The position numbers and the translations under genes are program-made. Below the pieces are notes generated by a model that saw only the letters and a program-made list of their open reading frames with translations, ran no database searches and was not told the DNA's origin. This document shows, in pieces, positions 8,394-38,919 of a stretch of DNA of 64,000 nt. The stretch comes from a virus. The stretch's first letter is position 1. Each line of letters starts with the position of its first letter. The stretch is from IMG/VR virus record IMGVR_UViG_3300009103_000012, positions 20,395-84,394 of that record. One strand, given 5' to 3'.

Positions 8394-9049
8394 GGACCAG
8401 CTGCAGCTGTGGCCCCTACCGCAATGGGAACCTGTTCATCATATTCTTCTTGTTTCGCGGCATGGTCTTCTTTCTTTCTAATATCATGACGTGTGGCAAG
8501 GAGTTCTCCAACTTCATCGGCAATCTCTTCACCATACTTGTCTAATAAAAAGCTTCTAGCTTTAGACATAATCAATTCTTCAATGTCAAAAAACGCGTCA
8601 AAGTTTAAGATTAGCCTTGCGGTCTCGGCAGCGAAACGATCTACATCAATCGTAACTTCATCTGCCTCTCTTAACAGCATCCTCTTAAGAGAATAACTTT
8701 CCTCTTGTACTTGAGCGCTCTTAATTGAGTCAGATTCAATATCAATAAAAATAGCCTGAAGTTGATCATCTAAAGACTTACCGAAACGAACCTCATCTTC
8801 TTCTTCAGCTTTTGGACCCTCGTCCTCTTCAGCCTCGCCTCCACCTTCGTCGTCGCCACCTTCTTCTTCACCACCCTCTTCTTCACCACCTTCTTCTTCA
8901 CCACCGAATGGATCATCTCCACCTTCTTCTTCGCCGCCGGCCTCTTCTTCGCCGCCGCCTTCTTCTTCGCCACCAAATGGGTCGTCCTGCTCCAGCAAAG
9001 TACCTTTGTATGCTTTACGAAAATAATCTTTTAGTTGGTCTCTCTTCAT
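8390..9049 (-). CDS. Highly acidic protein with GGEEE repeats (head/scaffold-like)
   Basis: 219 aa; DDPFGGEEE twice plus repeated GGEEE; GTLLEQ and LKRMLLRE motifs. Confidence 0.6.
   Translation of the reverse strand: MKRDQLKDYFRKAYKGTLLEQDDPFGGEEEGGGEEEAGGEEEGGDDPFGGEEEGGEEEGGEEEGGDDEGGGEAEEDEGPKAEEEDEVRFGKSLDDQLQAIFIDIESDSIKSAQVQEESYSLKRMLLREADEVTIDVDRFAAETARLILNFDAFFDIEELIMSKARSFLLDKYGEEIADEVGELLATRHDIRKKEDHAAKQEEYDEQVPIAVGATAAAGP
8826..8986. repeat. Imperfect ~15-nt tandem repeats encoding GGEEE
   Basis: Repeated cttcttcaccacc / cttcttcgccgcc units on the + strand. Confidence 0.7.
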
Positions 9050-9765
9050 TTTTCGCTCCCTAAGCCGGCTGAAAATAGTTTTGCAAGTTTATCTGCTCTT
9101 TTTACTCGTGCGTTAACAAGCTCCCAATTAAGCTCTTTCATCATCGCGAAAATATACTTTTTACGATCATTAAGATAGTCTCTGAAATATGCTCTTTCCT
9201 GTACTGATAATACAATAATCGGTACAGAGCACATCGGGATCCCTACTTCATTACCATCAATGAATATATTCATATAACGATTTAGAAAGCCATTATACAC
9301 TGTACATACCCATCCATCCCGGGAAGCCATTCCACATGCAATAAAGTCTTTCTGCCAATCTTCAAACGTACCAAAATCACGTGTAAGTCTCATATATGCT
9401 AAACTATCCATTGAAATCTTGGATGTTGGATCTGCTATATTATCGAAATAATAAGCTGAAAGAAATGAGCCATTCATATTGAAGGCCTCCTCCTGCTTAA
9501 TCCCTCTAAACGAAGAGTCTTTAGAATTCGACTCCGATCGGTCAACAGAATCCAGCTTTGCGGAAACGTCATTTAAGGCGTCAACATATTCATGTAAATT
9601 TTCCACATTTGCCTTGATAGCTTTCTCACTAAGCATATCAGTATTAATTTCATAATTCTTTGCTTGGACAACATAAGATTCTGAAAGGGGCTGCTGCGGT
9701 TTCTCTGAGTCCTTATAGAGCGTCTCATTTATCGCTCTCAATATTTCTTTCTCATTTATTGGCAT
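9046..9765 (-). CDS. Fe/Mn superoxide dismutase-fold protein lacking metal ligands
   Basis: DFGTFEDWQKDF, GWV, PIIVL..E.AY..DY..RKKY..LNW SOD C-domain motifs; DVWEHAYY is replaced by SVQERAYF. Confidence 0.7.
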   Translation of the reverse strand: MPINEKEILRAINETLYKDSEKPQQPLSESYVVQAKNYEINTDMLSEKAIKANVENLHEYVDALNDVSAKLDSVDRSESNSKDSSFRGIKQEEAFNMNGSFLSAYYFDNIADPTSKISMDSLAYMRLTRDFGTFEDWQKDFIACGMASRDGWVCTVYNGFLNRYMNIFIDGNEVGIPMCSVPIIVLSVQERAYFRDYLNDRKKYIFAMMKELNWELVNARVKRADKLAKLFSAGLGSEK

Positions 9766-12304: not shown

Positions 12305-12724
12305 CTACGTTCTATAGCGCCTAACTGTGACTCCTGCGGACTTAAGTAGGTCAACTCCAGACATATCCCTATATTCTTCGTCAAAAACCACTTCCGAGAT
12401 CCCGCCATTGATCATTGCTTTCGCACACATCTTGCATGGACTAAGAGTCACATACATGATTTTTCTTCCGCGAATATTATAGTCGCACTTCAGCAATGCG
12501 TTAATCTCAGCATGGATCATTCCTGAATTTCCAGGCTCAGTGGACTCCACTTCATTAGGTCCACCAGAATAATTACCGTTATATCCCACGGCAAGAACCT
12601 GTGTATTCTCCTTTGTCACAATAACGGCACCGACCTGATATCGAGGGTCGTAAGATCTACGAGATATGGAATGGGCAAAGCCCATCCATATCTCATCCCA
12701 CTCTGGTCTACCACCCAAGCTCAT
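12305..12724 (-). CDS. dCMP deaminase
   Basis: RPEWDE.WM, VGAVI, GYNG, HAEINAL, PCKMC zinc deaminase motifs. Confidence 0.9.
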   Translation of the reverse strand: MSLGGRPEWDEIWMGFAHSISRRSYDPRYQVGAVIVTKENTQVLAVGYNGNYSGGPNEVESTEPGNSGMIHAEINALLKCDYNIRGRKIMYVTLSPCKMCAKAMINGGISEVVFDEEYRDMSGVDLLKSAGVTVRRYRT

Positions 12725-14138: not shown

Positions 14139-14579
14139 TTAATTATCATTTTCTTTGTTCGGGTGCACAAAAACATACTTTCCACTTTCATCAACTTCAC
14201 GCCCATAATCGTCTTCCAACCGAACAGGAGAGGAAGAATCAGTACCTGAAGAAATTTCAAAAACAACACTGTCATCCATTGCTGTCAATCGATACGCACA
14301 CCCTGCTTGAACATTTATTATTTCACCAGGTCCCAACGTTACAACTCGAGCAGGATAAAGCACATGATCTAAGAAGTGTCTTTCATCTGCAATTTCAGCA
14401 CTGATCAGACCACTCTGAACATATAAGACTTCTTGTTTCGATCTGTGAAATTTTAAGCTTGTCCGATGACCTGCTCTCAAATGAATTTCTTTGCCGTGGA
14501 AAATACCATTCCACTGGATCTCATAACCCCATGGCTTCTTTGTCGCTGATGATCTTCCTGGCCAAATGCACCTATTCAT
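14139..14579 (-). CDS. Cupin-fold sugar isomerase-like protein (mannose-6-phosphate isomerase type II C-terminal-like)
   Basis: KPWGYE, TSLKFHRSKQEVLYVQSG, EIS, VRLEDDYGR; ATG 14579 overlaps the epimerase stop (TAATG). Confidence 0.75.
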   Translation of the reverse strand: MNRCIWPGRSSATKKPWGYEIQWNGIFHGKEIHLRAGHRTSLKFHRSKQEVLYVQSGLISAEIADERHFLDHVLYPARVVTLGPGEIINVQAGCAYRLTAMDDSVVFEISSGTDSSSPVRLEDDYGREVDESGKYVFVHPNKENDN

Positions 14580-15595
14580 TAATCGATTAGCTCCCACCAT
14601 TGAAGCGTTTTTCTTAGCCCATCCCAAAATTGCTTACGGGGATGCCAGCCAAGATCTTCGCTAATCTTATTTATACAGCCCAATGTATGCTTAACATCAC
14701 CTGCCCTCTCTGGAGCATGAGTAATGGTTAGGTCAGGAAAATACTCTTCCAGCACTCCTAAAATCTGATTATTCGATACCGACGCACCAGTAGCGACATT
14801 ATACATCTGAAACCCTAAATACGCAGGGTGGTCGGCTGCGGCAATCATGGCTTGAGCAACGTCTTTAACATAAATCATATCTCTCGTCTGCTCACCGTCT
14901 CCATCACTTCGAAGAGGGTCACCATTCTTTATACGAGCACACCATGCTGCAACAGCAGTAGAATATGGAGAATCTCCCAGTTGGCCTGGACCGTATACAT
15001 TAAAGAATCTTAACGCAACAAAATCCATCCCGTAGAGTGTAGTATACATCTCAGCGAATTGCTCAACCACAAGCTTTTGTAATCCGTAAGGAGACGTAGG
15101 ATCCTCCGCTTCTTCTTCTGTCGTTGGTAAACTGGCAACCTCCCCGTAACAAGCAGACGATGATGCAAATACAAATCGTTCTATCTTGTTAATCGCGGCG
15201 GACATTAATTCAATTGTCTTCTGAACATTTGTGTGGGTCGTTAATGCTGGATATTTAACAGAATATTCAACTCGTGGATTCGCAGCGAGGTGAAAAATCA
15301 CGTCATAATCGCCGGCGGCGACACGAGACAAAATCTGTCCTGCTGCAAAATCAGCCGTGATAACTAGAAGCTCGCCAGCCAATGGAATACCGGCTTGCTC
15401 ATCATACAGGTGAAGCATTCCTTCTGTAACTGTACGATGTCGCATACCCTCCAAAGTGGAAAGATCACCATTCGAGAGATCATCGACACCCTCAACATAC
15501 CACCCAGCTTCTACAAGCTGACGTGTCACATGGCTTCCTATAAAACCGCAACACCCCGTCACTAGTGCTTTACGTAAACGCACAAAATCCTCCAA
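14579..15595 (-). CDS. NAD-dependent NDP-sugar 4-epimerase (GalE/WbpP-like extended SDR)
   Basis: ALVTGCCGFIGSH, HLAA, FASSS..YG, SPYGLQK (YxxxK), LRFFNVYGPGQ, GDGEQTRD. Confidence 0.88.
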   Translation of the reverse strand: MEDFVRLRKALVTGCCGFIGSHVTRQLVEAGWYVEGVDDLSNGDLSTLEGMRHRTVTEGMLHLYDEQAGIPLAGELLVITADFAAGQILSRVAAGDYDVIFHLAANPRVEYSVKYPALTTHTNVQKTIELMSAAINKIERFVFASSSACYGEVASLPTTEEEAEDPTSPYGLQKLVVEQFAEMYTTLYGMDFVALRFFNVYGPGQLGDSPYSTAVAAWCARIKNGDPLRSDGDGEQTRDMIYVKDVAQAMIAAADHPAYLGFQMYNVATGASVSNNQILGVLEEYFPDLTITHAPERAGDVKHTLGCINKISEDLGWHPRKQFWDGLRKTLQWWELID

Positions 15596-15599
15596 TTCT

Positions 15600-16124
15600 C
15601 TAAATGTTAATTCCTAAAAATATTTTAATCTTTTTGATCTGATTGTTCAAATCCATATCATCAGTTTCTAAAATAAAGCATTCACAGGCTGTCGTTTCTA
15701 CAAAGGCTCTATACAGCTTATCAAGCTTTTCCAGCATTTCTTTCGGCAGGTCATTAGGGTATTGATCATCAATGAGCCCCGAATAATCTTGTCGTAAACA
15801 AATAATAAATTTACCCGCTGCCTCGGAAAAATTCACGTCCATCCAAGATATCGCAGACATATCTGTCTCTCTTTCAAACGCTTCTGCGTATACAAGTTCG
15901 CAAGGGTAAAAGCGATCAAGGATAACTTTCGCGTCGGTTTGCCTCATAAAGTCCATAAGAAATGGACCACCATAACGTAAAAGATTGAGAAAATAATCGG
16001 GTCTATCTAACTCCGTTTCCCACTCTCCAGAATTCTTAAATACAGGAATTCCGGTCTGTCGAGACAACTCAGCAGCAATATTGGATTTTCCGGTCATATC
16101 AGGACCGATGAACGCAATTTTCAT
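15600..16124 (-). CDS. dNMP kinase (thymidylate kinase-like), probable hm-dCMP kinase
   Basis: P-loop GPDMTGKS and ILDRF motif; lies inside the modification operon. Confidence 0.75.
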   Translation of the reverse strand: MKIAFIGPDMTGKSNIAAELSRQTGIPVFKNSGEWETELDRPDYFLNLLRYGGPFLMDFMRQTDAKVILDRFYPCELVYAEAFERETDMSAISWMDVNFSEAAGKFIICLRQDYSGLIDDQYPNDLPKEMLEKLDKLYRAFVETTACECFILETDDMDLNNQIKKIKIFLGINI

Positions 16125-17176
16125 ACCCGATAATCCCCCAGGATGTGCTCGAGAAGATCAGTCCTATATTCAGGCCTTGGATCGATTACAGTCCTCAGAG
16201 CTTCCTCCTGGGCGTCGACAAGCGCCTTCCTCTCATTCGCAGATAAAGTCGCAATCCACTTCACTTTCTTAACAACATCCTCTGTTGTTTCAACAAGCAA
16301 TGACTTGTCGGCTAATCCAACAGGTACAGCATGCTGAAACTCAATTGGAACCAAAGCTGGTACGTTACTCTTAATCGCTTCAAAGAAGCGACCCGTAATA
16401 TTTCCATAGGGAGTATAAGCCGGCTTCGTAATATGAGTCACAGTAATGGAAGAGTTTAGAACACCAAAAATATCCTTGTAGGCTAGACGAGGTCCAAATG
16501 CAACATTCGGTGTCTGCGCAAGCAGCTCCGCTGGGTCTATTCGCTCAGGTGATTTGTTCAGCCAATTTCCGTAAATCATTGTCTGGACACCTTGCTCGCG
16601 CAACGCAGCGCTTGGGCCAGTGTAATACTTCGCAAAAGGCTGCTCACGTTCGTAGTTGTTACCAACGTATGTATAATTGTAAGAATACTCAATGGGCTCA
16701 AAATATCGCTTCATGTAATTGCACCAGGGGATTGTAATCCGCTTTCGTGTTTGGTGCTGGGGTGCTACACATGCATCAGCAAGAATTGCATTCGGCCAAC
16801 GATTCTCTTCTTGCGGTGTCATTTTAAGATCACCGTCTACAATCACTATGGGGATTCCTTGCTCATGGTAATAGTCAAGAACCTGACATTGACGCTGATA
16901 GTCAGACTCTTCTGGATTTTCGCCGCTGTTCTTCCACGTAGGCCATCTCCATTCTACATAAAGAATATCGCCATCAGGGAAGCCGGTGTCATCATACTCT
17001 ACACCAGGGTATTGTTCATCATCCCTCATTTTCTGAAGCTGGATTGGTGTATGGCCACGCTTAAGTAATTCATTGACCCAATCTACACGGTTTCCACGCT
17101 CTCCATCTGGTGTGTTAACAATGCTATTCTTTTCAAGGGGTGTAATAAACCCCCAAAAACTATACAAAACCCTCAT
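16121..17176 (-). CDS. GT-B glycosyltransferase resembling T4 DNA beta-glucosyltransferase
   Basis: 351 aa; YVGNNYERE, VAFGPRL, NITGRFFEAIKSNVPALVPIEF and C-terminal helices parallel T4 BGT as recalled (IYGGSFR..RE, VFTGKI, FITLRVWETMASDAVMLIDEEF). Confidence 0.7.
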   Translation of the reverse strand: MRVLYSFWGFITPLEKNSIVNTPDGERGNRVDWVNELLKRGHTPIQLQKMRDDEQYPGVEYDDTGFPDGDILYVEWRWPTWKNSGENPEESDYQRQCQVLDYYHEQGIPIVIVDGDLKMTPQEENRWPNAILADACVAPQHQTRKRITIPWCNYMKRYFEPIEYSYNYTYVGNNYEREQPFAKYYTGPSAALREQGVQTMIYGNWLNKSPERIDPAELLAQTPNVAFGPRLAYKDIFGVLNSSITVTHITKPAYTPYGNITGRFFEAIKSNVPALVPIEFQHAVPVGLADKSLLVETTEDVVKKVKWIATLSANERKALVDAQEEALRTVIDPRPEYRTDLLEHILGDYRV

Positions 17177-17191
17177 TTTTTCTCCTTAATA

Positions 17192-18322
17192 TTAACCATT
17201 ATATGTCGGGGTGTTACGTTTTTCAAGCTCACGTTTAGCTTTTACAAGTGCTGAACCGATAACTTGATGCATATCGTAGTATTTATACTCCGCCAATCTC
17301 CCACCAAAAATAACTCCCGATTCTTCATGAGCCATAGCAGCATACTTCTTATACATCGATGTATTCTTCTCATTATTGATAGGGTAATAAGGCGTCTTAC
17401 CGCGCTTATACTCATCAGAATACTCACGTGTGATTATCGTATTTGGAATCTTGTTGGCTGTCTCTGGTAAAAAGTGTTTATGCTCAACAATCCGAGTATA
17501 TGGAATTTCAGGATGAGTGTAGTTTATGACCGCATTTCCCTGGAAATCTCCCTCAAGCTCCTCATGCTCAAAGCGAAGTGTCCTATATTCTAGCTCGCCA
17601 AACTGATATCCGAAATACTCATCAATCTTACCAGTGAATACAACTTTGTCAGCAAGGCTGTTCAACTCATCTTTATTCATAAAATAATCAACACCTGTCC
17701 GGACCTCAATTCCTTCCAGCATATTCGCAACCATTTGTGTGTATCCCTCCTTGGGGATCCCCTGATACTTGTCGAAGAAATAGTTTTCTTCAAAAACCAT
17801 ACGAATAGGAAGCCGTTTAATGATGGAGGCGGGTAGCTCTCTTGGGTCACGCTGCCATTGCTTCATCGTGTAACCCTTGATAAAAGTCTCATAGACCTCA
17901 CGCCCCACTTGGGAAAGAATCCAGTCTTCAAGATTATCAGGGTTCTCACATGGGATTCGAACTTCTTCTAGCTTTGCTTCTGCTTCGGCCGGAGTCATGA
18001 CTCCCCACAACTGATGGAGCGTCATCAAATTAATAGGAAACGAGAAAATACGGTCATTATAGCGGATCTTTGGCTTGTTAATATAATTGTTAAAAGTCGC
18101 AAATCGATTAACATAATCCCAAATACGATCATTGCTCGTATGAAAAATATGCGCCCCATACACGTGGACATCTACCCCATTTCGCTTTTCTGAATAAACG
18201 TTTCCAGCGATGTGGTTTCGTTTGTCTATTACAAGACATCGATATCCTGCATCTGTCATTTCTCTGGCAAATGTAGACCCAAATATTCCTGAACCGACAA
18301 TTAGATAATCGTACTTACTCAC
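17192..18322 (-). CDS. glf: UDP-galactopyranose mutase
   Basis: YDYLIVGSG, HVYGAHIFHT, YQGIP, LEYRTLRFE, FQGNAVINY, TRIVEHKHF, PYYPIN, GRLAEYKYYDMHQ. Confidence 0.95.
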   Translation of the reverse strand: MSKYDYLIVGSGIFGSTFAREMTDAGYRCLVIDKRNHIAGNVYSEKRNGVDVHVYGAHIFHTSNDRIWDYVNRFATFNNYINKPKIRYNDRIFSFPINLMTLHQLWGVMTPAEAEAKLEEVRIPCENPDNLEDWILSQVGREVYETFIKGYTMKQWQRDPRELPASIIKRLPIRMVFEENYFFDKYQGIPKEGYTQMVANMLEGIEVRTGVDYFMNKDELNSLADKVVFTGKIDEYFGYQFGELEYRTLRFEHEELEGDFQGNAVINYTHPEIPYTRIVEHKHFLPETANKIPNTIITREYSDEYKRGKTPYYPINNEKNTSMYKKYAAMAHEESGVIFGGRLAEYKYYDMHQVIGSALVKAKRELEKRNTPTYNG

Positions 18323-19350
18323 TTTGCACCCCTTGTATTAAATCGATAACCTTCAAATTTCAAATTTTCCAACATTTTTCTTGCTTCACTTCTTGTCGAG
18401 ATTTTTCTTATTCTATCAGCAGCTAACACTACCGCAAAATCATGCCAGGTCAATGCGTCATTAGTGGGATATGCAAACACACGACGAAACGCTTGGTGGA
18501 TAGCTTCTACCGAAGTGGCGATAGAGATGTCTTTTTCGACCTCCATCATCTTTTCTATCCAATAAGAAAGTTCATCACTTGAAGCACATCCTAACGGTGG
18601 CATCTGTCCATACCTTTTCCATAGCTCAAACTGTGATCTATTAACATTTGATGTCTGTAGAATTCTCTCTGCCATCTCAAAGTGGCGCTCATATATGTGT
18701 AATGAATTGCTGGTATGAGTGTAGGTTCCCAACCCAACGCCAAGTTCATTAGCAAGTAATTCTTGAAATAGCGTAAATGCTGGAATATCATATGCAATAC
18801 CGAATATCACATCTGAACTTCTCATATTCACAACCTGATGAAGTTTGCCGTCTCTAATAAAAAATTGAAGTGCCAATGTACAAGGAACGTCTAGCTTTGC
18901 GTCAATACTATCATCAGGCACCCTAAGATGCATTACCGCTCGACGGGAATCTGGGTCTCTAGTAAGCTCATCAATAATATACTCCCATTGATTGAACCTC
19001 CCCTGAGCAATCTTGGGGTGTCGTTGAAATAGTCTTGCGCCATAAGCAGAGTTTGCTGTTACTCCATCATCTGAAATATTTCTCCAAAAGTTTGAATATT
19101 TCGATATCCACGCTGTCTCATTATTTCCAGAAAGATACCACACAAGCTCAGCAACCATATAAGAAATACTAAACTTTCGTCCTGCAACGTATGGAATTCT
19201 GTCTCTGGGATTTAAGATCGTAAATGAAGCGCCAAGTATTTCCTTGACTCTTTGCCCACGAGGGGCTGCTTCAAATGTTGGACTTTCGTAAACATTTCGA
19301 ACTAGCGAAATGTAGCAGTGCGTAAATGATTGATAGGTTCCAATATGCAT
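18319..19350 (-). CDS. Thymidylate synthase-family dCMP-modifying enzyme (dCMP hydroxymethylase-like)
   Basis: ELVWYLSG, NSAYG, DSRRA, DVPCT (Cys157), MRSSDVIFGIAYD (Asp188 where dUMP-specific TS has Asn), SLHIYERH. Confidence 0.8.
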   Translation of the reverse strand: MHIGTYQSFTHCYISLVRNVYESPTFEAAPRGQRVKEILGASFTILNPRDRIPYVAGRKFSISYMVAELVWYLSGNNETAWISKYSNFWRNISDDGVTANSAYGARLFQRHPKIAQGRFNQWEYIIDELTRDPDSRRAVMHLRVPDDSIDAKLDVPCTLALQFFIRDGKLHQVVNMRSSDVIFGIAYDIPAFTLFQELLANELGVGLGTYTHTSNSLHIYERHFEMAERILQTSNVNRSQFELWKRYGQMPPLGCASSDELSYWIEKMMEVEKDISIATSVEAIHQAFRRVFAYPTNDALTWHDFAVVLAADRIRKISTRSEARKMLENLKFEGYRFNTRGAK

Positions 19351-19403: not shown

Positions 19404-22400
19404 TCATATACGAAGAAGCTTGACTTTACTCATAGAAGTTTGGTATCCGAAGTCATTTTTCTTCACTTCTGCGCAACACAAACTGTAAAGTGGGAGATCT
19501 GTCTCGCCATCCCAACCCCAACAAAACATTCGAAAGTTTTTACCCTCCAGCCCAGTCGCGGTGACCAAAAGATATGGACGCTTGTTTTTTGTGAGCTTAG
19601 GCTTAATGTCAGACACGAGGAACCAATACACATCATGACCCCTGGTATCGATTTCATCAATACACGCGATGTCTTTCTTTGCCAAGCGCTCCTGAACTTC
19701 TTCGCTAATAAGAGTTGATGCGTTAAAAGACCCAAAATGCTTTACACTATTTTCTACCATCTCCCTGCGAGACCAATGGCCCGATCCTTGCGTCTCAAGT
19801 AGGGCCTCCTTGAAGTTATTTCTGCCACGTTCTGGATCACGCTTTGTCCACTTCTTGATGTCGTTCTGTCGTCCGATAACGACTTCATGCATGTGCTTAT
19901 AGCTCTCGAACGTCTTACCGGGGCCGACTAGATCCATAGATTCGAAGCCGCGGATTTTGATCAAAGCCTCAAGAGCGCGCTTGTTGAACTTAGAATGTTT
20001 CCACTTTCCATCATCGGTCCATAGAAGATCATCGATGCCTTGATATGGTCGATTTGCAACTAGCTCATCGATTGCAGACTCGCCAATACCCTTACAAGAT
20101 AAGAGCGAAGGCATGAACTTTTTACCCTCAAGGATTGTCCACTTCTTTGTGGCATAATTGATATCTAGAGGCGCAACGCGATATCCTAAAGCCTTAACCT
20201 CAGCAAAAGCCTTTGCTCGCTTCTTGTCGTTACCTGACATCGCCTCAAGATAAGCACACAGCCATTCTTCTTCAAAATATGTCAAGAGCCAAGCGCAGTA
20301 ATACGAGTCAATCGCGTAACATACTGCGTGAGACTTATTGAAGCCATAACCTGCAAAGAACAAAATCTTTTCGTATAAGTCATCAGCCAATTGTCGATCT
20401 ACTCCATTCTTCACAGAGCCTGCAACAAACTGCTCCTTGATCGATCTAGCTTTGGCAAGACTCTCTGCTGCTTCTGACGCTTTCCGCTTCATAATACTCC
20501 GACGTACGGTGTCTGTTTCTTCTTCGGGGAAACCCGCCACCACAGAGCAAAGCTTCATGATTTGCTCCTGAAAGACAATTAGACCGTAGGTTTCTTCAAG
20601 AACTTCCTTGATTAACGGATGGCCATAATCGATCTTCTCAGGGTTGTTCTTGGCCTTGATATACAATCTATCGACCTTCGCCGTGAGTGGGCCTGGACGA
20701 TAGATGGAAGTCAGCGTAGCAATATCAACGATGCTCTTAGGCTTCGCCTTTTTGAACAAGTTCTGAGCACCACGGCCGGCCAGCTGAAAGATGCCAGCCC
20801 AGCGGCCTTTTCCGTAAACGTGATCGTATACGTGCTGATCGTCCATGTCAAGTACTTTCGGGTCCATATTGGCGTTAAACCATTCATACACCTGAGCGAA
20901 TGTTGGGTCTTCGATACCCTCCTTTCGCTGTAGGATGAGCTCGATGGTACGCTGGATAATTCGAAGCGTTTCAAGACCAAGTAGATCAAACTTAATCCAG
21001 CCGAAAGTCTCAAGATGCTTATAGTTCATGCCCTCAGCCCACGGGGTCTGTAGCTCACCACGTGCCTTGATAAGCGGCATCCTTTCCGCAATATCCTCTG
21101 CAACGATACAACCACCAGCATGGCGACCTAAGGCCTTGTTCTGCTTGAACAGAACCTGGATTGGAGCAGCAACTTCTGGATGAGCCTCGATGAATGCTCT
21201 GAACGTCTTCGAGTGAGCTAGCGCATCTTCGTAAAGCAGCACAAATAGATTCTTATCAGTACCCTGCTTGAATACTGCGCGCTTTACATCTTCTTCGACC
21301 GGCGCTAGCGCCTTATTCACTTCGTTAAATGGAATACCATAAAATCGTGAAATATCTTTGACAAGAGACTTAAGCTTGAATGTATTGTAATTAGAGATCG
21401 GGACAATATTCTCATCGCCCCACTTGTCTTTCATCATATTGATGAGTAGGTCTCGGTCGCCAACATCAGTATCGATGTCTGGTGCACCTTCACGAGAAGG
21501 ATTCAAGAAGCGACCGAACATAAGATCATATTCAAATGGGTCAACGTCTGTTAGCTTAAGAACATAAGCAACAAGACTACCAGCAGCTGAGCCGCGACCG
21601 GGACCAACAAGCATGGCTTGTTTGGCAATCTTAATAATCGCTTCCATTGTCAAAAAGTATCGAGAGAAATTCTTGTCTTTAATAATCTTCAACTCATGCT
21701 TTATTCGCTCGATATATTTTGGGTCACCCGCCAATCCTCGCTCAACAAGACCCTTTTTACATGCCTCAAGCAGAGCCTTATCGTCTGTCATACCCTCAGG
21801 TACAACATAAGAAGGAAGTTTCATCGTCCTATCAGGTGCAATTGTGCTGATCTCTTCATGGACAATCTGATGAGGTCGCTCAATAGCATTCTTCACAATC
21901 TGGTCATCATAAAATGACATACCATCTGCACTTTCTAGATATGTATCCCACAATTGCTGAGCATTCTTAGGGTATAACTCACACTTCAAGTCCTCTTTAG
22001 TTTGGGGTAGTTTTGACGGATCAAACTCACGATAATTTAGCCAGCCAAGCTTCTTGTAAAGTTCACGCTCACGCCAATGCTCTGGTCGAGCGTAATGAGA
22101 GTCAGTCGTTACAACTAATTTATCTTGTAAGCTATTTTTATTCGCGAACTCGATGATTGCTCGATTAACAAGGTGCTGGGCAGGGAGCTTATTGAATTGA
22201 AGCTCTAGATGAACATCATTAATTCCAACGGCGTCTACCAAACCTTGGTAAGCGTTACCCACGCCAGTCATTACACTACGGTGAAAAGACGGATCATCCA
22301 TCAGTTTATAGCTAAGATCATCAAACTCAACGTTCTGAGCATGCCGAAAGACCTCATAAGCAATTGGTCCGCCAATACAAGCGGTAGAAACCATCAGGTG

Positions 22401-23024
22401 GCCACCCTCGGCGGCCTCCCTTAACATCTTATAGTCGATTCGTGGAAACCTATAGAAACCCTCTCTATACCCCCTACTCACAAGATGGAACAAGCGCTGG
22501 AGACCTACGCTTGTCTTAGGAAGAACGACCAAGTGATGGCGTCTCTTAATCGGATCATAGAATTTTGAAGACTTTGTTTCTTCTTCATTTTCAATAGTGA
22601 GGCCGGCATCTTCTTTGCCGATATCTACAATCTCATCATCCCCATCCACTATTGCAGTTAGAGGTGTAGCGATTGCTTCTCTCTGCTCACGAAGTCGAAG
22701 CAAAGCCTCTTTATCACCCTTCTTCGCAGCTTGCCGAATCTCCATATCAAGCTTCCATGCTTCAAGGTCAGGATGTACATACATCTCACAGCCTGGAACG
22801 AACTTAAATTTACCGCCGCGCTTTTGTACTTTTTCAGCATGAAGGAATGCATGGCCAAAAGAATTCATGTGACCATGATTGGTGAGACACCAACCATCCA
22901 TGCCGTTTTCGATTATAAAATCAATATGTTCTTGAGGATACCCAAGGCCATCGAATGTACTAAACCCATCATGTGAATGAAGGGAAATAAACTTACTAGG
23001 GGGAGTAAGCAAAGTCTTTCTCAT
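19404..23024 (-). CDS. dnaE: DNA polymerase III alpha subunit (family C)
   Basis: PHP domain (LHSH, GCEMY, TTDSHY), GPGRGSAAGSLVAY, PDIDTD, GRHAGG, KFDLLGL, YGFNKSHA, C-terminal OB fold. Confidence 0.96.
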   Translation of the reverse strand: MRKTLLTPPSKFISLHSHDGFSTFDGLGYPQEHIDFIIENGMDGWCLTNHGHMNSFGHAFLHAEKVQKRGGKFKFVPGCEMYVHPDLEAWKLDMEIRQAAKKGDKEALLRLREQREAIATPLTAIVDGDDEIVDIGKEDAGLTIENEEETKSSKFYDPIKRRHHLVVLPKTSVGLQRLFHLVSRGYREGFYRFPRIDYKMLREAAEGGHLMVSTACIGGPIAYEVFRHAQNVEFDDLSYKLMDDPSFHRSVMTGVGNAYQGLVDAVGINDVHLELQFNKLPAQHLVNRAIIEFANKNSLQDKLVVTTDSHYARPEHWRERELYKKLGWLNYREFDPSKLPQTKEDLKCELYPKNAQQLWDTYLESADGMSFYDDQIVKNAIERPHQIVHEEISTIAPDRTMKLPSYVVPEGMTDDKALLEACKKGLVERGLAGDPKYIERIKHELKIIKDKNFSRYFLTMEAIIKIAKQAMLVGPGRGSAAGSLVAYVLKLTDVDPFEYDLMFGRFLNPSREGAPDIDTDVGDRDLLINMMKDKWGDENIVPISNYNTFKLKSLVKDISRFYGIPFNEVNKALAPVEEDVKRAVFKQGTDKNLFVLLYEDALAHSKTFRAFIEAHPEVAAPIQVLFKQNKALGRHAGGCIVAEDIAERMPLIKARGELQTPWAEGMNYKHLETFGWIKFDLLGLETLRIIQRTIELILQRKEGIEDPTFAQVYEWFNANMDPKVLDMDDQHVYDHVYGKGRWAGIFQLAGRGAQNLFKKAKPKSIVDIATLTSIYRPGPLTAKVDRLYIKAKNNPEKIDYGHPLIKEVLEETYGLIVFQEQIMKLCSVVAGFPEEETDTVRRSIMKRKASEAAESLAKARSIKEQFVAGSVKNGVDRQLADDLYEKILFFAGYGFNKSHAVCYAIDSYYCAWLLTYFEEEWLCAYLEAMSGNDKKRAKAFAEVKALGYRVAPLDINYATKKWTILEGKKFMPSLLSCKGIGESAIDELVANRPYQGIDDLLWTDDGKWKHSKFNKRALEALIKIRGFESMDLVGPGKTFESYKHMHEVVIGRQNDIKKWTKRDPERGRNNFKEALLETQGSGHWSRREMVENSVKHFGSFNASTLISEEVQERLAKKDIACIDEIDTRGHDVYWFLVSDIKPKLTKNKRPYLLVTATGLEGKNFRMFCWGWDGETDLPLYSLCCAEVKKNDFGYQTSMSKVKLLRI

Positions 23025-23974: not shown

Positions 23975-24349
23975 CTATGCATTAAGACGCTCCGTTATAA
24001 TGTTGTGTTTCCTTACATAAGCACTAAAAAATTCATCGCAATCAACCCCAGAAAGTACAATTATCGCAAGAAAATAATTGAATGCATCAATCATTTCTTC
24101 TAGAAATTCTTCCCTATCAAACTCAGGAACGCCATAAGTCTCTTCACGATGGTCTTTCCAATTCTTTAAATGAAGCAAAGCTTCAAAAAGCTCTTCCATA
24201 CCTCGAAAAGCAAATTCACGAATTGCTTGTTGGTTTTTTTTCTTGCTTAAATCAACCGGCCAATCAGGATATGCACCTTCAATCTTTTCGTTAATACGAT
24301 ACATAAACTCTTCACGGAGGCCAAATATCTTTGCTAAACGATCAGACAA
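23975..24349 (-). CDS. All-alpha NTP pyrophosphatase (dimeric dUTPase / T4 gp56-like dCTPase)
   Basis: EELFEA..LKNWKDH and EEFLEEMIDAFNYF acidic motifs; TTG start at 24349 with GGAGG upstream (ORF track start 24388). Confidence 0.75.
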   Translation of the reverse strand: MSDRLAKIFGLREEFMYRINEKIEGAYPDWPVDLSKKKNQQAIREFAFRGMEELFEALLHLKNWKDHREETYGVPEFDREEFLEEMIDAFNYFLAIIVLSGVDCDEFFSAYVRKHNIITERLNA

Positions 24350-24350
24350 T

Positions 24351-24581
24351 TTACTCTTCCTCCGCTGCCTCTTCATTTTGAGTAGCAATTTCAGTAATCA
24401 TGGCTTGAATGTTTGCATTAAAAGCTTCATGATAATCAGGTGAAAGATCAAGTTGCCCATTGGTAGTAACAAACTCTGCCATTCGAAGATTATCAACAAT
24501 ATCTGTCCCGGTTAGAATTGCAACCTGAACGATTTGCGCAATATGAGCGATTGCATTATCACTTAATTTTGACGTTTCCAT
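24351..24581 (-). CDS. Hypothetical protein
   Basis: 76 aa with GGAG RBS; TATAAT at 24620-24625 upstream. Confidence 0.7.
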   Translation of the reverse strand: METSKLSDNAIAHIAQIVQVAILTGTDIVDNLRMAEFVTTNGQLDLSPDYHEAFNANIQAMITEIATQNEEAAEEE

Positions 24582-25291: not shown

Positions 25292-25999
25292 TTAAAGCTG
25301 ACGATATTCTCGATATGAAGCCAAAGTTTCAGGCCAAATTTCTTCAGCTATATGAAGACATGCTTTTGCAACTTGCTGAATTTCCCACTGCGCTCCCTCA
25401 TGTACACGTAGCTCTATAAACTTAAATAAATTGTTTAAATTTACTGTGCCATAATATTCTGAATAAAGATTTTGGGGAAGCACTCCGCGGGCTTGCTCTC
25501 TACAAATACCGTTCTTCATAAGGTCATTATAGAGGCGCAAAGATAACTTGTGATGTTGCTCTATACAATGAGCTGCTGTCAATCCCATTTCAGGATCTGA
25601 AAGATCTGGAATTAATACCGGATCGATCTGCCCGCAAATATTTGAGGCTTGACGATTTGACTTGTGTTGGGTCCTAAAGCTCTTTGGCTCATAAAATCTG
25701 ATATCTACATCCGTATACCTTCTAGATATCTCGTTATAAGACCAAGTCCTGTGGCGATGATGCTGGCTACGTACAAAAAGAGGCACAATAAAACGGAAAG
25801 TAATAACGTTATGCTCAAGAGTTGATGTATGCTTATGCCTGATTAGATAGCGAATGAGCTTTTTATCTTTCCCATCGAGCTCTTCCTTCACTTTTCCGAA
25901 TGAAACCCTTGCACTGTTCACCACTGTTAAGTCTGATCCCATATGTTCAATATATTCCACTGCACCAATGGCATCGTCATAAAGCTCAATTCTTTTCAC
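25292..25999 (-). CDS. thyX: Flavin-dependent thymidylate synthase
   Basis: VVNSARVSF, HTSTLEH, RHRTWSYNEISRRY, EQARGVLP, AQWEIQ. Confidence 0.95.
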   Translation of the reverse strand: MKRIELYDDAIGAVEYIEHMGSDLTVVNSARVSFGKVKEELDGKDKKLIRYLIRHKHTSTLEHNVITFRFIVPLFVRSQHHRHRTWSYNEISRRYTDVDIRFYEPKSFRTQHKSNRQASNICGQIDPVLIPDLSDPEMGLTAAHCIEQHHKLSLRLYNDLMKNGICREQARGVLPQNLYSEYYGTVNLNNLFKFIELRVHEGAQWEIQQVAKACLHIAEEIWPETLASYREYRQL

Positions 26000-26438: not shown

Positions 26439-27449
26439 TTATTGGACAAATTTACAAAGTTGTAAAGCTACTCTATAGGGATCGCATCCTGATGATGGGC
26501 GACGATCTTCAAGGTACCCACGCCACTCTTTCTCTATAACACTATTGGGTATCCTCACTGAAGTGTCTCTAGCGGCGACGCCATAAGTAAATCTATCTAA
26601 TGAAGCCGTCTCAAATCCCCCAGTTAGACGAAGACCATTCTCAGCCCCATATTCAGATATCGACTCGTGATGTCGAGCCTCCATATTAGAAATAATTCGC
26701 TGGAATTCTTCTTCATTACCATCTTCTCTCATTTTCTTAGTAGAGAAATTAGTATGACACCCAGAGCCATTCCAACCAGGGTGGGGCTTGGGATGCCAAT
26801 CGACACCAAGCTCAAGGTCTTCTGTCATCAGCTCCAGAAGATACCTACTAACCCACAACGCATCGGCGGCAGTTATCGGATTCTCTGCGAAACATTGATA
26901 TTCCCATTGTCCTGGGGAGACCTCCGCATTATAGCCAACCACCCTAACTCCGACCTGATTACAAAATGAAGCATGCTCACGAATAAGCTTCCGAAACTTC
27001 ACGCTACCTCCTGAAGAGCAATAGTAACGCGAATCCTTGATCGGCTCTCCGCTATCAGGCCAGAACACATTCTTATCATTCGAAGTGATGAAATATTCCT
27101 GTTCGAAACCAACCCACATTTCTTGAGCACCTTCCGTGCTCGCTACTGCTTCTCGTAACTTCGCCCTGTAATTTGACGGATGAGGTGTTCGCTCAGCATT
27201 AGGCATACATACTTCACATAAAGCAACATAGTGATTGTCAGCGACTTGAAACATTGCTTTTGGTTGCAGGACTCTTTCAGAGTCGCCAGTGTCTGCTTGC
27301 CCGGTCGAAGAGCCATCAAAGTTCCACTCAGGAACATCTAATTGAACTTCTCCAGCTTCATTAGGCTGAAGGACAGTCGATTTTGTTTTCGACCTAATGG
27401 AGGGATGCTCAAAACCATCCACCCAAATATAGTCTAAATGAACTAACAT
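26439..27449 (-). CDS. glnII: Glutamine synthetase type II
   Basis: YIWVDG, RSKTK, WNFDGSSTGQA, GFEQEY, NAEVSPGQWEYQ, HPKP..WNGSGCHTNFST, GYLEDRRPSS..DPY; ~336 aa is GSII length. Confidence 0.9.
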   Translation of the reverse strand: MLVHLDYIWVDGFEHPSIRSKTKSTVLQPNEAGEVQLDVPEWNFDGSSTGQADTGDSERVLQPKAMFQVADNHYVALCEVCMPNAERTPHPSNYRAKLREAVASTEGAQEMWVGFEQEYFITSNDKNVFWPDSGEPIKDSRYYCSSGGSVKFRKLIREHASFCNQVGVRVVGYNAEVSPGQWEYQCFAENPITAADALWVSRYLLELMTEDLELGVDWHPKPHPGWNGSGCHTNFSTKKMREDGNEEEFQRIISNMEARHHESISEYGAENGLRLTGGFETASLDRFTYGVAARDTSVRIPNSVIEKEWRGYLEDRRPSSGCDPYRVALQLCKFVQ

Positions 27450-28371: not shown

Positions 28372-28974
28372 CTACTCAAAATCAATGTCGACAGCTACCT
28401 TTATAGACAGCTTCGGAACACGAAGATGATTAGCCATGTTATGCTTCTTGGTTTCTGCTGCATCCAGAAACCAGTCCGCATGCTTCTTCTTATCTACGAT
28501 CTTCATGAAATAGTCATCTTTCTTACCGCAATTCTGAGCCATCATGGTATAAATTATTGTATTTAGCCTGTCGGCTTCTGCGGCGCCAGCCTTCATCTCT
28601 TCAACTTTACCCCATTCCATTGACGAAACATCATGAATCATTACTGTTGCGTTGGGGTCCATAAACCGATATCCTTCATCTCCAAATGAAAACAACACTG
28701 CTCCGCACGACATAGCTTTACCTTCTACGATAGTTGCTACGGGAATCTCAGCGTGTTTAATCGCACTAATCATGCTCATTAAACTATATACTTGGCCGCC
28801 ATAAGAATCGATTATCACTGGAATTACCTTTTGCCCAGTATTATGAGCTTGTCCCATTTCTAATGCAAATTTCTTTGCTGACTCTTCATCGAACTTATTG
28901 ACGCGAATCATTATTGGCTGCTTCCTCAGCTCTATCTCTTTTATTTTCGGATCTATCTCAGATGTCCAGTGCAT
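28372..28974 (-). CDS. clpP: ClpP-family protease
   Basis: IDSYGGQV, GKAMSCG (Ser), VMIHD (His), DWFLDAAE (Asp). Confidence 0.85.
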   Translation of the reverse strand: MHWTSEIDPKIKEIELRKQPIMIRVNKFDEESAKKFALEMGQAHNTGQKVIPVIIDSYGGQVYSLMSMISAIKHAEIPVATIVEGKAMSCGAVLFSFGDEGYRFMDPNATVMIHDVSSMEWGKVEEMKAGAAEADRLNTIIYTMMAQNCGKKDDYFMKIVDKKKHADWFLDAAETKKHNMANHLRVPKLSIKVAVDIDFE

Positions 28975-36330: not shown

Positions 36331-37170
36331 TTACTCAGAAAAGCGATGTGATGCATCTATCTCAAAATATTGTGGCTCAACCCTTGAAAGGTTCTCCTTT
36401 AGCCACAAGCATTCACGCTTAGCTTCCTCTTCGCTGTTCGTAGCCTTCCACCAACATGTCAATTCAGGATTCCACCTGTATCGACCTTGCTTCAAGATTA
36501 CATTCTCTTCCCTTAGCGAATTCGCGGCAAAAACATGATAGTCTGGCTCTGACGCATTCTGCAACAGCTCTTGCATATATTTGTTCTTTCGCAAAAGATG
36601 AAGTGTGGCATCCACATCTGCAACTGCATTGTGAGAATCATAAAAATACCCATGCCAGGCGCAAAGCACTTCTAGAGCCTTAGAGCATCGTACGATAGGT
36701 GTCCAATCAACTTGAGTCATAGAACATCCCCAGATAGCATTCTCAGGCGCCAGTTGATTGTTTTTACGAAGGGCTATATCAATCCATTTTCTGTCAAAAG
36801 AAGCGTTGTGTGCAATGATAAATTGGCACTTTTGCAAGACACGAGAAATCTTATCCCAAGGAATACTCTTTCCTTCTAGGTCTTCATCTGTGAACCCAGT
36901 TATGTGCGTAATAATCTTAGGTAGAGGAGCTGACGGTTGCTGCAGGGCAACGATCGTATTTCTCAATCCGGAAACTTCGCCAGTGGTTGGACTCACAAAG
37001 AATGGGCGAATCGCAATCTGAATTATTTCATCCTTCAGATGATTCAAGCCCGTTGTTTCAACATCAATAACTGCTGCTACAACATCTCCATCTTCAGGCT
37101 CTCTATCTGGATCATCCAAATTAGCCAATTTATTAAGAAGTACTTTTCCGTTTAGTTCTAAATGCTTCAC
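36331..37170 (-). CDS. DEDDh 3'-5' exonuclease (DnaQ/epsilon-like)
   Basis: VIDVETTG, IAHNASFD, HNAVADV. Confidence 0.88.
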   Translation of the reverse strand: MKHLELNGKVLLNKLANLDDPDREPEDGDVVAAVIDVETTGLNHLKDEIIQIAIRPFFVSPTTGEVSGLRNTIVALQQPSAPLPKIITHITGFTDEDLEGKSIPWDKISRVLQKCQFIIAHNASFDRKWIDIALRKNNQLAPENAIWGCSMTQVDWTPIVRCSKALEVLCAWHGYFYDSHNAVADVDATLHLLRKNKYMQELLQNASEPDYHVFAANSLREENVILKQGRYRWNPELTCWWKATNSEEEAKRECLWLKENLSRVEPQYFEIDASHRFSE

Positions 37171-37232: not shown

Positions 37233-37730
37233 CTACCAATCGCCCTTGTTCGGTCCGGTGTGAACGATCACATCACCACCATCGACTTGTATTTGAAGCG
37301 GCACGTCTGAAGACAGTATACCGGCGGTCATGGCCCCCATTAAAGTGTGGTGAAGAAATTTCGCACCATTTCGAGCATCAAGCTCTCCCAGCCCGATAGA
37401 CAATCCTTTCCGATCTCCCTTTGTCACCACGCCAATACCTCCGTAGGCCTGAGCCATGGTGTCTTGTTTCACAGCTTGTTTCCAAATAGTGCGTACACCT
37501 TCCAGACCGTTTCCGCCACCAGAAATTCCAAGATTCTTCATAAGCTGGCCAGGATTTCTTTTCGCCAAGGCGCCAGTCTCAGCGACCACTTTGGTAAAAC
37601 CACCCTTTCCAACCGACAAGCCAATTTCACCAGGCTTTATCGCTTTTCCTTTTTTGCGGTGTCCTCTTCCCTTTTTTTCTTCTTCATTTAGAATTGTTCT
37701 AATATAACTTCTAACTTTTTGTTCATTCAT
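37233..37730 (-). CDS. Basic Gly-rich protein with VRSYIRTILNE leader
   Basis: 165 aa; leader motif shared with the acidic late proteins. Confidence 0.55.
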   Translation of the reverse strand: MNEQKVRSYIRTILNEEEKKGRGHRKKGKAIKPGEIGLSVGKGGFTKVVAETGALAKRNPGQLMKNLGISGGGNGLEGVRTIWKQAVKQDTMAQAYGGIGVVTKGDRKGLSIGLGELDARNGAKFLHHTLMGAMTAGILSSDVPLQIQVDGGDVIVHTGPNKGDW

Positions 37731-38919
37731 GATTGTTAAACTCTTTTATCTTAAGCGGGAAATTTCCAAGTCCAGAAACATCGTACCCTGTATTTACATA
37801 TCTTGTGATTTCGTCTAAATGCTCATTCGGTGTATCAATAATTAGTGCATCGTGAATTACGAATAGTGGCTTACACTTGCTGGAAAAACGCTTGGTAAAC
37901 TCCTTGAACCCAGCAATTGCGACGTCTGAGGCTGTCGATTGTAAGTAATTATTCACAAGAATACTTTCTCTTCCACTATCAATTTCTATAGGGCGTCCAA
38001 AATAATTCTGGATCATTCCTGATTTTGCCTGATATCTCAACTCACGCTTAAGATCAACTAACTTAAAATAGCTTGACACTTCGCGCATCAAATATGAGGC
38101 GCTTATTTTGGACTTATCTTTTTTCAGAAGCTGTTCAAGACGCAAATTACCAGCTCCATATAACGAACACAAGACTGCCAACTTTGCGGTGTCTCTCGAC
38201 ACCTTTATATTACTAGACTCTATAAACGAAAGATATACGTCACTTGCAGCATGAACGTTCGCAAGATTAAGGGCAACTCGGGGCTCTAGAGAAACAAAAT
38301 CGATCTCATAAAGAGTACCGCGATTTGAAGCGGGAGTAAAGACAGACCTAAATTCTTTTTTCAATGTCAAAATCTGCGGGCCACTTTTGATCGTTAAGCG
38401 TCCAGTCTTTGTTGAAACCCGATCATACAATGGGACGTCCAAAAAAGAGTTGGCTGAACCTGACAATAACTTTCTTAAGACATGCGAATCGTTGTGCTGT
38501 AATAATTTCCTTGTCAGTGTTGTATCGATTCGTGATTGACACAAGCTACTAAACAGCTCATTTGAATCTATAAAAAACTTTGGGTAATTACTCTCGGTTA
38601 ACAACTCTTCAATTTTGCAAAGTTCTTCAACATACTTCTTAAAATTCTTCTTAAATACTTTTCTAGGGAGGATGTAGCGCCACGGTATCGATGGAGGGAC
38701 CTTAATGTCGGAAAAGCTTTTCCTGAATCTTTTCGGTACAAAATCAGGAATATCTATATCATATAAGCTTAATAGAGGCTCCAAAGAGTCTGGTCGGCCT
38801 GGGCACCCAATCACAAAATATGACCTATCCGATATCTCATGTGTCCACCTGATTAGTCCACCGCTTATAATCATGTGATTTTCTGTGCCGATGTAATTCT
38901 TATGAAGCAAAATTGGCAT
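37723..38919 (-). CDS. Family A DNA polymerase domain (PolA-like, no recognisable exonuclease domains)
   Basis: TKTGRL, motif A DFVSLEPR, motif B RDTAK......YG, NNYLQSTASD, motif C VIHDA. Confidence 0.78.
   Translation of the reverse strand: MPILLHKNYIGTENHMIISGGLIRWTHEISDRSYFVIGCPGRPDSLEPLLSLYDIDIPDFVPKRFRKSFSDIKVPPSIPWRYILPRKVFKKNFKKYVEELCKIEELLTESNYPKFFIDSNELFSSLCQSRIDTTLTRKLLQHNDSHVLRKLLSGSANSFLDVPLYDRVSTKTGRLTIKSGPQILTLKKEFRSVFTPASNRGTLYEIDFVSLEPRVALNLANVHAASDVYLSFIESSNIKVSRDTAKLAVLCSLYGAGNLRLEQLLKKDKSKISASYLMREVSSYFKLVDLKRELRYQAKSGMIQNYFGRPIEIDSGRESILVNNYLQSTASDVAIAGFKEFTKRFSSKCKPLFVIHDALIIDTPNEHLDEITRYVNTGYDVSGLGNFPLKIKEFNNHE

Follow-up and report, generated by a model that had tools for sequence, protein, structure and literature searches.

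A BGT-related glycosyltransferase family of uncultured jumbo phages: probable acceptor and possible donors at a Glf-linked locus

What does a phage glycosyltransferase modify, and with which sugar, when its gene lies between those of a UDP-galactopyranose mutase (Glf) and a nucleotide-kinase-like protein? The question is raised by a stretch of 64,000 nucleotides (hereafter the window), part of the 84-kb IMG/VR virus record IMGVR_UViG_3300009103_000012, in which this arrangement surrounds the gene of a 351-amino-acid (aa) glycosyltransferase, hereafter GT. Phages classically shield their DNA from restriction enzymes and CRISPR nucleases with glycosylated 5-hydroxymethylcytosine (hmC), and beta-glucosyltransferase (BGT), which puts glucose on the DNA of phage T4, is a standard reagent for hmC labelling in epigenomics. 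The best explanation of the whole locus, which we consider probable, is that GT glycosylates DNA after replication and represents a hitherto unnamed phage family; that it is an hmC-DNA glycosyltransferase appears, as judged from sequence, quite likely. Most likely, GT decorates the phage DNA with a galactose-type sugar, so evading the host nucleases. Observed are the fold, a C-terminal domain homologous to that of BGT, the signature residues and a neighbourhood that is conserved; acceptor, mechanism and donor, with the ring form of the latter, are inferred.

An earlier note on this DNA had described GT by four motifs and placed it between Glf and a dNMP kinase, and both descriptions hold: the translation contains NTPDGE (residues 21-26), VIVDGDLKM (111-119), YVGNNYERE (170-178) and NITGRFFEAIKSNVPALVPIEF (259-280), and the two flanking genes are where they were said to be (Table 1). 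Relatives of GT form 171 clusters in a collection of 5.8 billion proteins, a profile search gathers 475 representatives of the family at 50% clustering, and an alignment of 37 family sequences has numerous invariant columns, the triplet T22-P23-D24 being invariant in the family; hence, the open reading frame (ORF) is a real gene. As a single sequence GT has no match in Pfam, PHROGs or NCBIfam, its phmmer matches in the PDB are all spurious (E~0.5, arenavirus GP2 and others), and a tblastn search of 50,697 phage records gave no match, that is, no cultured-phage relative. The family of GT, unannotated in Pfam, PHROGs and NCBIfam, occurs widely in contigs of uncultured jumbo phages, marine ones among them. 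At the nucleotide level, an AAGGAG is found seven bases 5' of the GT ATG, and the GT stop overlaps the start of the P-loop kinase-like gene in an ATGA. A sigma-70-like sequence, TTGAAA-17-TATAAT (11/12), is present at 17198-17226 on the minus strand, in the 3' end of Glf and just 5' of the GT ribosome-binding site. It is the top match within an 11.5-kb region and, by its sequence, may be an internal promoter; the matches of this type in the region are not in excess over shuffled sequences (28 versus 22.9 +/- 4.7).

The relation to BGT becomes apparent when the family, rather than the single protein, is compared. A profile of 37 GT relatives searched against all PDB sequences has T4 BGT as its sole match (E 6.6e-5). 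With a wider profile of 87 sequences the E-value of BGT improves to 1.6e-12, the runner-up being a designed protein (E 2.1), and the same profile finds b-gt alone (E 6.7e-15) in the six translated frames of the T4 genome (NC_000866). Alignment by hhalign of the 87-sequence GT family with a 25-member BGT family runs end to end over 312 columns (Prob 98.2%, E 2.8e-14) and places N21-E26 on T17-E22 (NTPDGE on TVPSSE), D116 on Asp100, Y170-E178 on I185-R195 (YVGNNYERE on IYGGSFRSGQR), R263 on Arg269 and E266 on Glu272. The C-terminal UDP-binding domain, the source of the whole signal, by itself aligns with BGT at Prob 98.7% and E 2.2e-16, and both R263 and E266 are invariant in the 37 sequences. 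T4 DNA alpha-glucosyltransferase (AGT), a retaining enzyme of the GT-B fold with the same substrate, has no detectable sequence relation to the GT family (hhalign Prob 0.6%), so the BGT signal is not a generic effect of the fold. In a language-model search the clusters of PF09198, the Pfam family of the BGT N-domain, rank directly behind the own family of GT. At the Pfam level the only overlap lies in the C-domain and is marginal: PF13524 (Glyco_trans_1_2) is not matched by GT itself and is matched by 21 of the 37 relatives (best E 1e-9), with scores near the 25-bit cut-off, as is also the case for members of the BGT family. On these alignments, the GT family is a sister of BGT through the UDP-binding half, and a separate family rather than a BGT orthologue.

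The N-terminal half is a different matter, and several results obtained with it and with the predicted structure weigh against a DNA-glycosylating role. When the N-terminal acceptor domain alone is aligned with BGT the register is kept, but the alignment is not significant (Prob 4%, E 0.01). PF09198, which covers BGT residues 1-166 and gives T4 BGT 325 bits, is matched by none of the 37 family members at E<=0.1. As the N-domain lacks a significant likeness to BGT, the binding of DNA and the acceptor are not readable from homology. The GT model is a confident GT-B fold with two Rossmann-like domains and a C-terminal helix crossing back, and in the structure rankings (Foldseek, re-ranking with VIA and an unbiased VIA search) BGT is tied with GT4 enzymes, which act on lipids and small molecules and stand level with it. 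Searches in BFVD returned mostly unnamed phage GT-B proteins. In the N-domain, D114 and D116 are conserved in at least 90% of the sequences, and D114-G-D116 follows the model strand 110-113 in the topological place of Asp100. From sequence and model, D116 (with D114) is a candidate catalytic acid whose position is consistent with an inverting mechanism, although its alignment with Asp100 lies in the domain whose alignment is not significant by itself. Net charge was considered as a proxy of DNA binding and rejected: the isoelectric point (pI) of GT is 5.2 and that of T4 BGT 9.05, yet the BGT family spans 4.9-9.4. The line-up with T4 BGT given in the earlier note is reproduced in register, its C-terminal motifs being firmly supported and its two N-terminal motif matches register-consistent but unproven. 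Its term "BGT-like" is appropriate for the donor half and the biological role, and not for family membership. The structure search that it had suggested recovered the GT-B fold without singling out BGT. The claim of a DNA base glycosyltransferase is partly supported: it gains from the homology of the C-domain and from the linkage to the gp42-type ThyA homologue described below, and loses from the N-domain and from the tie with GT4.

The strongest evidence for a GT family acting on hmC comes from a neighbouring gene. Among solved structures, the ThyA homologue encoded beside Glf is closest to MilA, a CMP hydroxymethylase (E 3e-51), with thymidylate synthases a long way behind. Aligned to bacterial ThyA and MilA (E. 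coli ThyA numbering), the homologue carries Asp in place of both L143 and N177 and retains the catalytic Cys and Asp169. The criteria to read this signature, in the order L143/Cys146/Asp169/N177, are those of PMC13326640: N177D denotes a cytosine substrate, L143D/E a non-methyl product, and D169N is the mark of the enzymes with which RB69, DLP3 and RL38J1 make 5-hydroxycytosine. In the same alignment the signature D/C/D/D is common to the window homologue, T4 gp42 and 50 of the 52 GT-linked homologues, and those of loci L052 and L056 have N/C/D/D, with Asn at L143. All 52 keep Asp169 and the N177 to Asp change, and D169N occurs in none. With Asp169 retained, like in T4 gp42, the homologue is expected to catalyse hydroxymethylation, and 5-hydroxycytosine as the product, in the style of RB69, DLP3 and RL38J1, was set aside. 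Read from its genes, the operon very probably makes hydroxymethyl-cytosine and activated galactose.

Conservation of the neighbourhood was analyzed in 57 related viral loci, with GT identities from 91% to ~22%, scoring the neighbours by tblastn with the window proteins. DnaE is present in 55 loci, the ThyA homologue in 52 (at a median distance of 2.2 kb from GT), the kinase in 48, the dCMP deaminase in 47, the epimerase in 46, the cupin in 24, being conserved in the closer clades, and Glf in 20. These data bear on two alternatives regarding the acceptor. GT could act on a non-DNA acceptor, such as a host envelope precursor, a virion protein or a small molecule, its place in a nucleotide module being incidental. 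An N-domain without significant similarity to any DNA glycosyltransferase, the many lipid and small-molecule GT4 enzymes among the structural neighbours, and the C-domain type PF13524, named also for the spore-coat YkvP/CgeB-like transferases, would suit this alternative. We regard it as improbable, given that the gp42-type ThyA homologue, the nucleotide kinase and the replicative polymerase stay near GT down to ~25% identity, that GT is translationally coupled to genes of the nucleotide module in the window, and that a hydroxymethylase on its own, with no transferase, would be the exception, T4 b-gt itself adjoining gene 42. Alternatively, GT could glycosylate free hm-dCMP or hm-dCTP ahead of replication, as its position between a nucleotide-forming ThyA homologue and a nucleotide kinase, together with its acidity, might suggest. 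This is more improbable still: charge is uninformative in view of the range of the BGT family, and a polymerase would need to take a bulky glycosylated dNTP. Moreover, according to PMC13326640, glycosylation of phage pyrimidines takes place on DNA in every characterised case.

Returning to hmC in DNA as the acceptor, the following pathway can be proposed. The ThyA homologue would make 5-hydroxymethyl-dCMP, which the P-loop kinase and host kinases would raise to the triphosphate. The DnaE-type polymerase, obliged to accept the modified nucleotide, would build hmC into the phage DNA, where GT would then move a sugar from a UDP-sugar onto the hydroxymethyl group. The acid with which strand 4 of the N-domain ends (D116/D114, in the place of BGT Asp100) would be the catalytic base and R263 and E266 would bind UDP; if GT inverts as BGT does, the linkage formed would be beta. 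The co-transcribed genes would provide the donor, UDP-galactose being made by the 4-epimerase and UDP-galactofuranose, in the clade of the window, by Glf. The product would be galactosyl-hmC, possibly beta-D-galactofuranosyl-hmC.

The identity of the donor is the second half of the question. Glf scores 368.8 bits on the NCBIfam equivalog TIGR00031 (UDP-galactopyranose mutase), above the cut-off of 303.75. In a maximum-likelihood tree rooted on BGT sequences the Glf-linked GTs do not group together but fall in three places, set apart by lineages without Glf: the clade of the window (11 distinct sequences, support 100/99), L046 and L049/L051. Glf ends 14-30 nt before GT throughout the clade of the window (15 nt in the window itself) with a single exception of 215 nt, and in L046 and L049/L051 just one ORF of 175-183 aa separates both genes. 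Considering that (i) the pairing of Glf and GT recurs; (ii) the genes are translationally coupled, and (iii) the epimerase would supply the substrate of Glf, we propose UDP-galactofuranose (UDP-Galf) as donor in the clade of the window. A furanose donor is an attractive hypothesis, to be held tentatively. Within the hmC-DNA reading, UDP-Galf is placed first although with less than even confidence, UDP-galactopyranose (UDP-Galp), or Glc or GalNAc, comes second, and another sugar takes the rest. In other clades the sugar genes beside GT are different: a second SDR epimerase/dehydratase and an unknown 265-aa ORF (L039:9023-10809), an FAD oxidoreductase and a short-chain dehydrogenase (L028:5724-7474), or two SDRs together with Glf and two unknown ORFs of ~355 aa (L046:3111-6371). 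Such differences between clades in sugar-tailoring genes suggest that the transferred sugar also varies. The full proposal would be that GT is an inverting DNA galactofuranosyltransferase (UDP-alpha-D-Galf to beta-D-galactofuranosyl-5-hydroxymethylcytosine) within a family that serves as a versatile hmC scaffold, the sugar being set by swappable neighbour genes (Glf in the window, an FAD oxidoreductase with an SDR or a pair of SDRs elsewhere in the family). In this complete form the proposal is possible but doubtful.

A furanose donor is opposed by three observations. First, 37 of the 57 loci have no Glf within 8 kb. Second, a comparison of the Glf-containing clade with 25 Glf-less core GTs revealed only V/I, L/F and V/L differences at conserved positions. 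Third, close relatives have elsewhere in their genomes GT2 and GT4 genes that could use UDP-Galf; in three larger relatives (G001, G002 and G004; 92%, 75% and 44% complete) they are located more than 100 kb from GT. Known galactofuranosyltransferases, for example GlfT1 and GlfT2, are GT2 enzymes. GT could instead be an hmC-DNA glycosyltransferase with a pyranose UDP-hexose donor (UDP-Galp, UDP-Glc or UDP-GalNAc), whereas Glf would serve a second sugar or a non-DNA glycan. This alternative, which deserves the same reserve as the full galactofuranosyl proposal, agrees with the epimerase accompanying GT in 46 loci and Glf in just 20, with the lack of any radical substitution between GTs with and without Glf, and with the glycan genes of the three relatives. 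The 19-kb glycan cluster of G001 (L063; G001:C1:36000-55000) contains several GT2, two GT4 and GT10/GT11 fucosyltransferase-like genes, a GDP-mannose 4,6-dehydratase, an SDR and a DegT aminotransferase. It is, however, a GDP-sugar cluster that has precursor genes of its own and lacks Glf, while Glf sits 15 nt from GT inside the DNA-modification operon and outside that remote cluster. Nor does a pyranose donor account easily for the pairing in three lineages or for G003 (67% complete), which has Glf and no GT2 or GT4 match, and Glf-less phages could use a host Glf. In G008 (73% complete) there is one GT4-type protein and no GT2. The lack of donor-specific substitutions fits a donor common to all clades, a tolerant pocket or a Glf that feeds another enzyme. 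A common donor could be UDP-Galp, provided by the conserved epimerase, or else UDP-Galf, for which phages without Glf would depend on that of the host.

Whichever the sugar, the GT family pairs a BGT-like UDP-binding half with a different acceptor half, in the company of sugar-nucleotide genes that vary. Should galactose, galactofuranose or other sugars be accepted, the known chemistry of DNA hypermodification would be extended, and the family would be a possible source of new hmC-labelling enzymes.

The genes around GT are given in Table 1. The window DNA is found in marine and seawater metagenomes, and the record has an estimated completeness of 26% of the genome, which makes the phage a jumbo phage. 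On the same strand follow one another the DnaE-type polymerase, the ThyA homologue, Glf, GT, the P-loop kinase-like gene, the SDR and the cupin and, downstream of it, genes for a DHH phosphoesterase, an MT-A70 methyltransferase and the dCMP deaminase. The ThyA homologue, Glf, GT, the dNMP kinase and the UDP-hexose 4-epimerase form a coupled set.

Table 1. Position and assignment of GT and of the genes related to the proposed modification pathway
Feature	Position	Strand	Evidence
GT-B glycosyltransferase, 351 aa, unnamed phage family	16121..17176	-	C-domain homologous to T4 BGT
UDP-galactopyranose mutase Glf, makes UDP-galactofuranose	17192..18322	-	PF03275 E 1.9e-79; TIGR00031 368.8 bits
ThyA homologue with dCMP hydroxymethylase signature	18319..19350	-	L143 to D, Cys146 and Asp169 kept, N177 to D
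P-loop nucleotide-kinase-like protein	15600..16124	-	AAA_28 E 2e-4; PHROG 761 thymidylate kinase E 5e-6
SDR, UDP-hexose 4-epimerase-like	14579..15595	-	PF01370 E 1e-49; top NCBIfam GalE, under cut-off
Small cupin-like protein	14139..14627	-	PHROG 7851 E 4.7e-14; Cupin_2 weak
DnaE-type DNA polymerase, module head	19404..23024	-	
dCMP deaminase, in conserved nucleotide module	12305..12724	-	PF00383 E 3e-22
ThyX	25292..25999	-	PF02511 E 1.3e-48

Some of these assignments deserve comment. The P-loop protein has weak PDB matches to YorR and dGK and is a candidate kinase for hm-dCMP. The closest PDB entries of the SDR are UDP-Glc/GlcNAc 4-epimerases, making it the likely supplier of UDP-galactose. 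The cupin-like protein has no PDB match; its ORF, with a TTG start at 14627, shares 49 nt with the end of the epimerase gene (14579-14627), and the real start may be downstream. ThyX presumably provides a separate source of dTMP, leaving the ThyA homologue specialised for cytosine modification. A 137-aa ORF at 23975-24388 (-) gives a marginal match to PRA-PH, an all-alpha MazG-like NTP pyrophosphohydrolase domain (E 2.5e-4; 21.8 bits, cut-off 21.3), and is a putative dCTPase, which would remove dCTP as T4 gp56 does. In addition to DnaE, the window encodes an RNase T-like exonuclease (36331-37170, -) and a protein of 398 aa that contains a family-A polymerase domain (37723-38919, -), so that the phage may encode two polymerase systems, DnaE-type and family A. 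Auxiliary genes unusual for a phage encode an Fe/Mn superoxide dismutase C-domain protein, a glutamine-synthetase-like protein and a ClpP protease (9046-9765, 26439-27449 and 28372-28974, all on the minus strand).

One of the closest known systems is that of T4, where b-gt directly follows gene 42, downstream of the polymerase; the order in the window is analogous, with Glf inserted. Identity of GT to T4 BGT (PF09198 N-domain; PDB 1bgt, 1j39 and 1nzd) is 13-14%, BGT Glu22 aligns to a non-conserved GT residue, and GT R177 is one position off BGT Arg195. Unlike the T4 module, that of GT adds a 4-epimerase and Glf, and the sugar is therefore probably not glucose. A preprint that mined about 25,000 GT contigs found GT-B BGT-like enzymes ThyS-associated in ~28%, often with an epimerase and a dCMP deaminase near the gene (bioRxiv 10.1101/2023.12.21.572611). 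Compared with the text of that preprint, the window locus fits the description of the ThyS-associated GT-B genes, while the enzymes tested there (GT53, GT66 and GT94) work together with methyltransferase/TET pathways and transfer heptose, Kdo-type sugars and others; neither galactose nor furanose is named in its main text (bioRxiv 10.1101/2023.12.21.572611).

Other phages also encode Glf. In the T4-like Aeromonas phage 25 (NC_008208, L061:4992-8263) a Glf homologue is followed by two hypothetical proteins of ~350 aa without Pfam match. Both fall outside the GT family and may be part of another Glf-linked DNA glycosylation system. The profile of the GT family finds no member in this phage or in Rhizobium phage RL38J1. 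A full-text literature search combining galactofuranose and hydroxymethylcytosine returned just PMC13326640 and one unrelated paper. The kind of system is thus known, whereas the GT family, its distinct N-domain, the combination of hmC with Glf, and beta-D-galactofuranosyl-5-hydroxymethylcytosine as a base modification are undescribed in the literature searched.

The most instructive comparison is that with RL38J1 and the Pootjesviridae, where a phage Glf was proposed to make UDP-galactofuranose for galactosyl-5-hydroxycytosine, the base-proximal hexose being galactose and the pathway including a ThyA homologue, a nucleotide kinase and GT-B transferases (PMC13326640). The RL38J1 Glf is 46% identical to that of the window but, unlike it, is not adjacent to its transferases. 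The ThyA homologue of RL38J1 has D169N, giving 5-hydroxycytosine with an ether link directly to C5, whereas that of the window keeps Asp169, as expected for a hydroxymethyl product. The RL38J1 system keeps a phage Glf feeding DNA glycosylation a live idea, and the window locus would be its hydroxymethyl counterpart.
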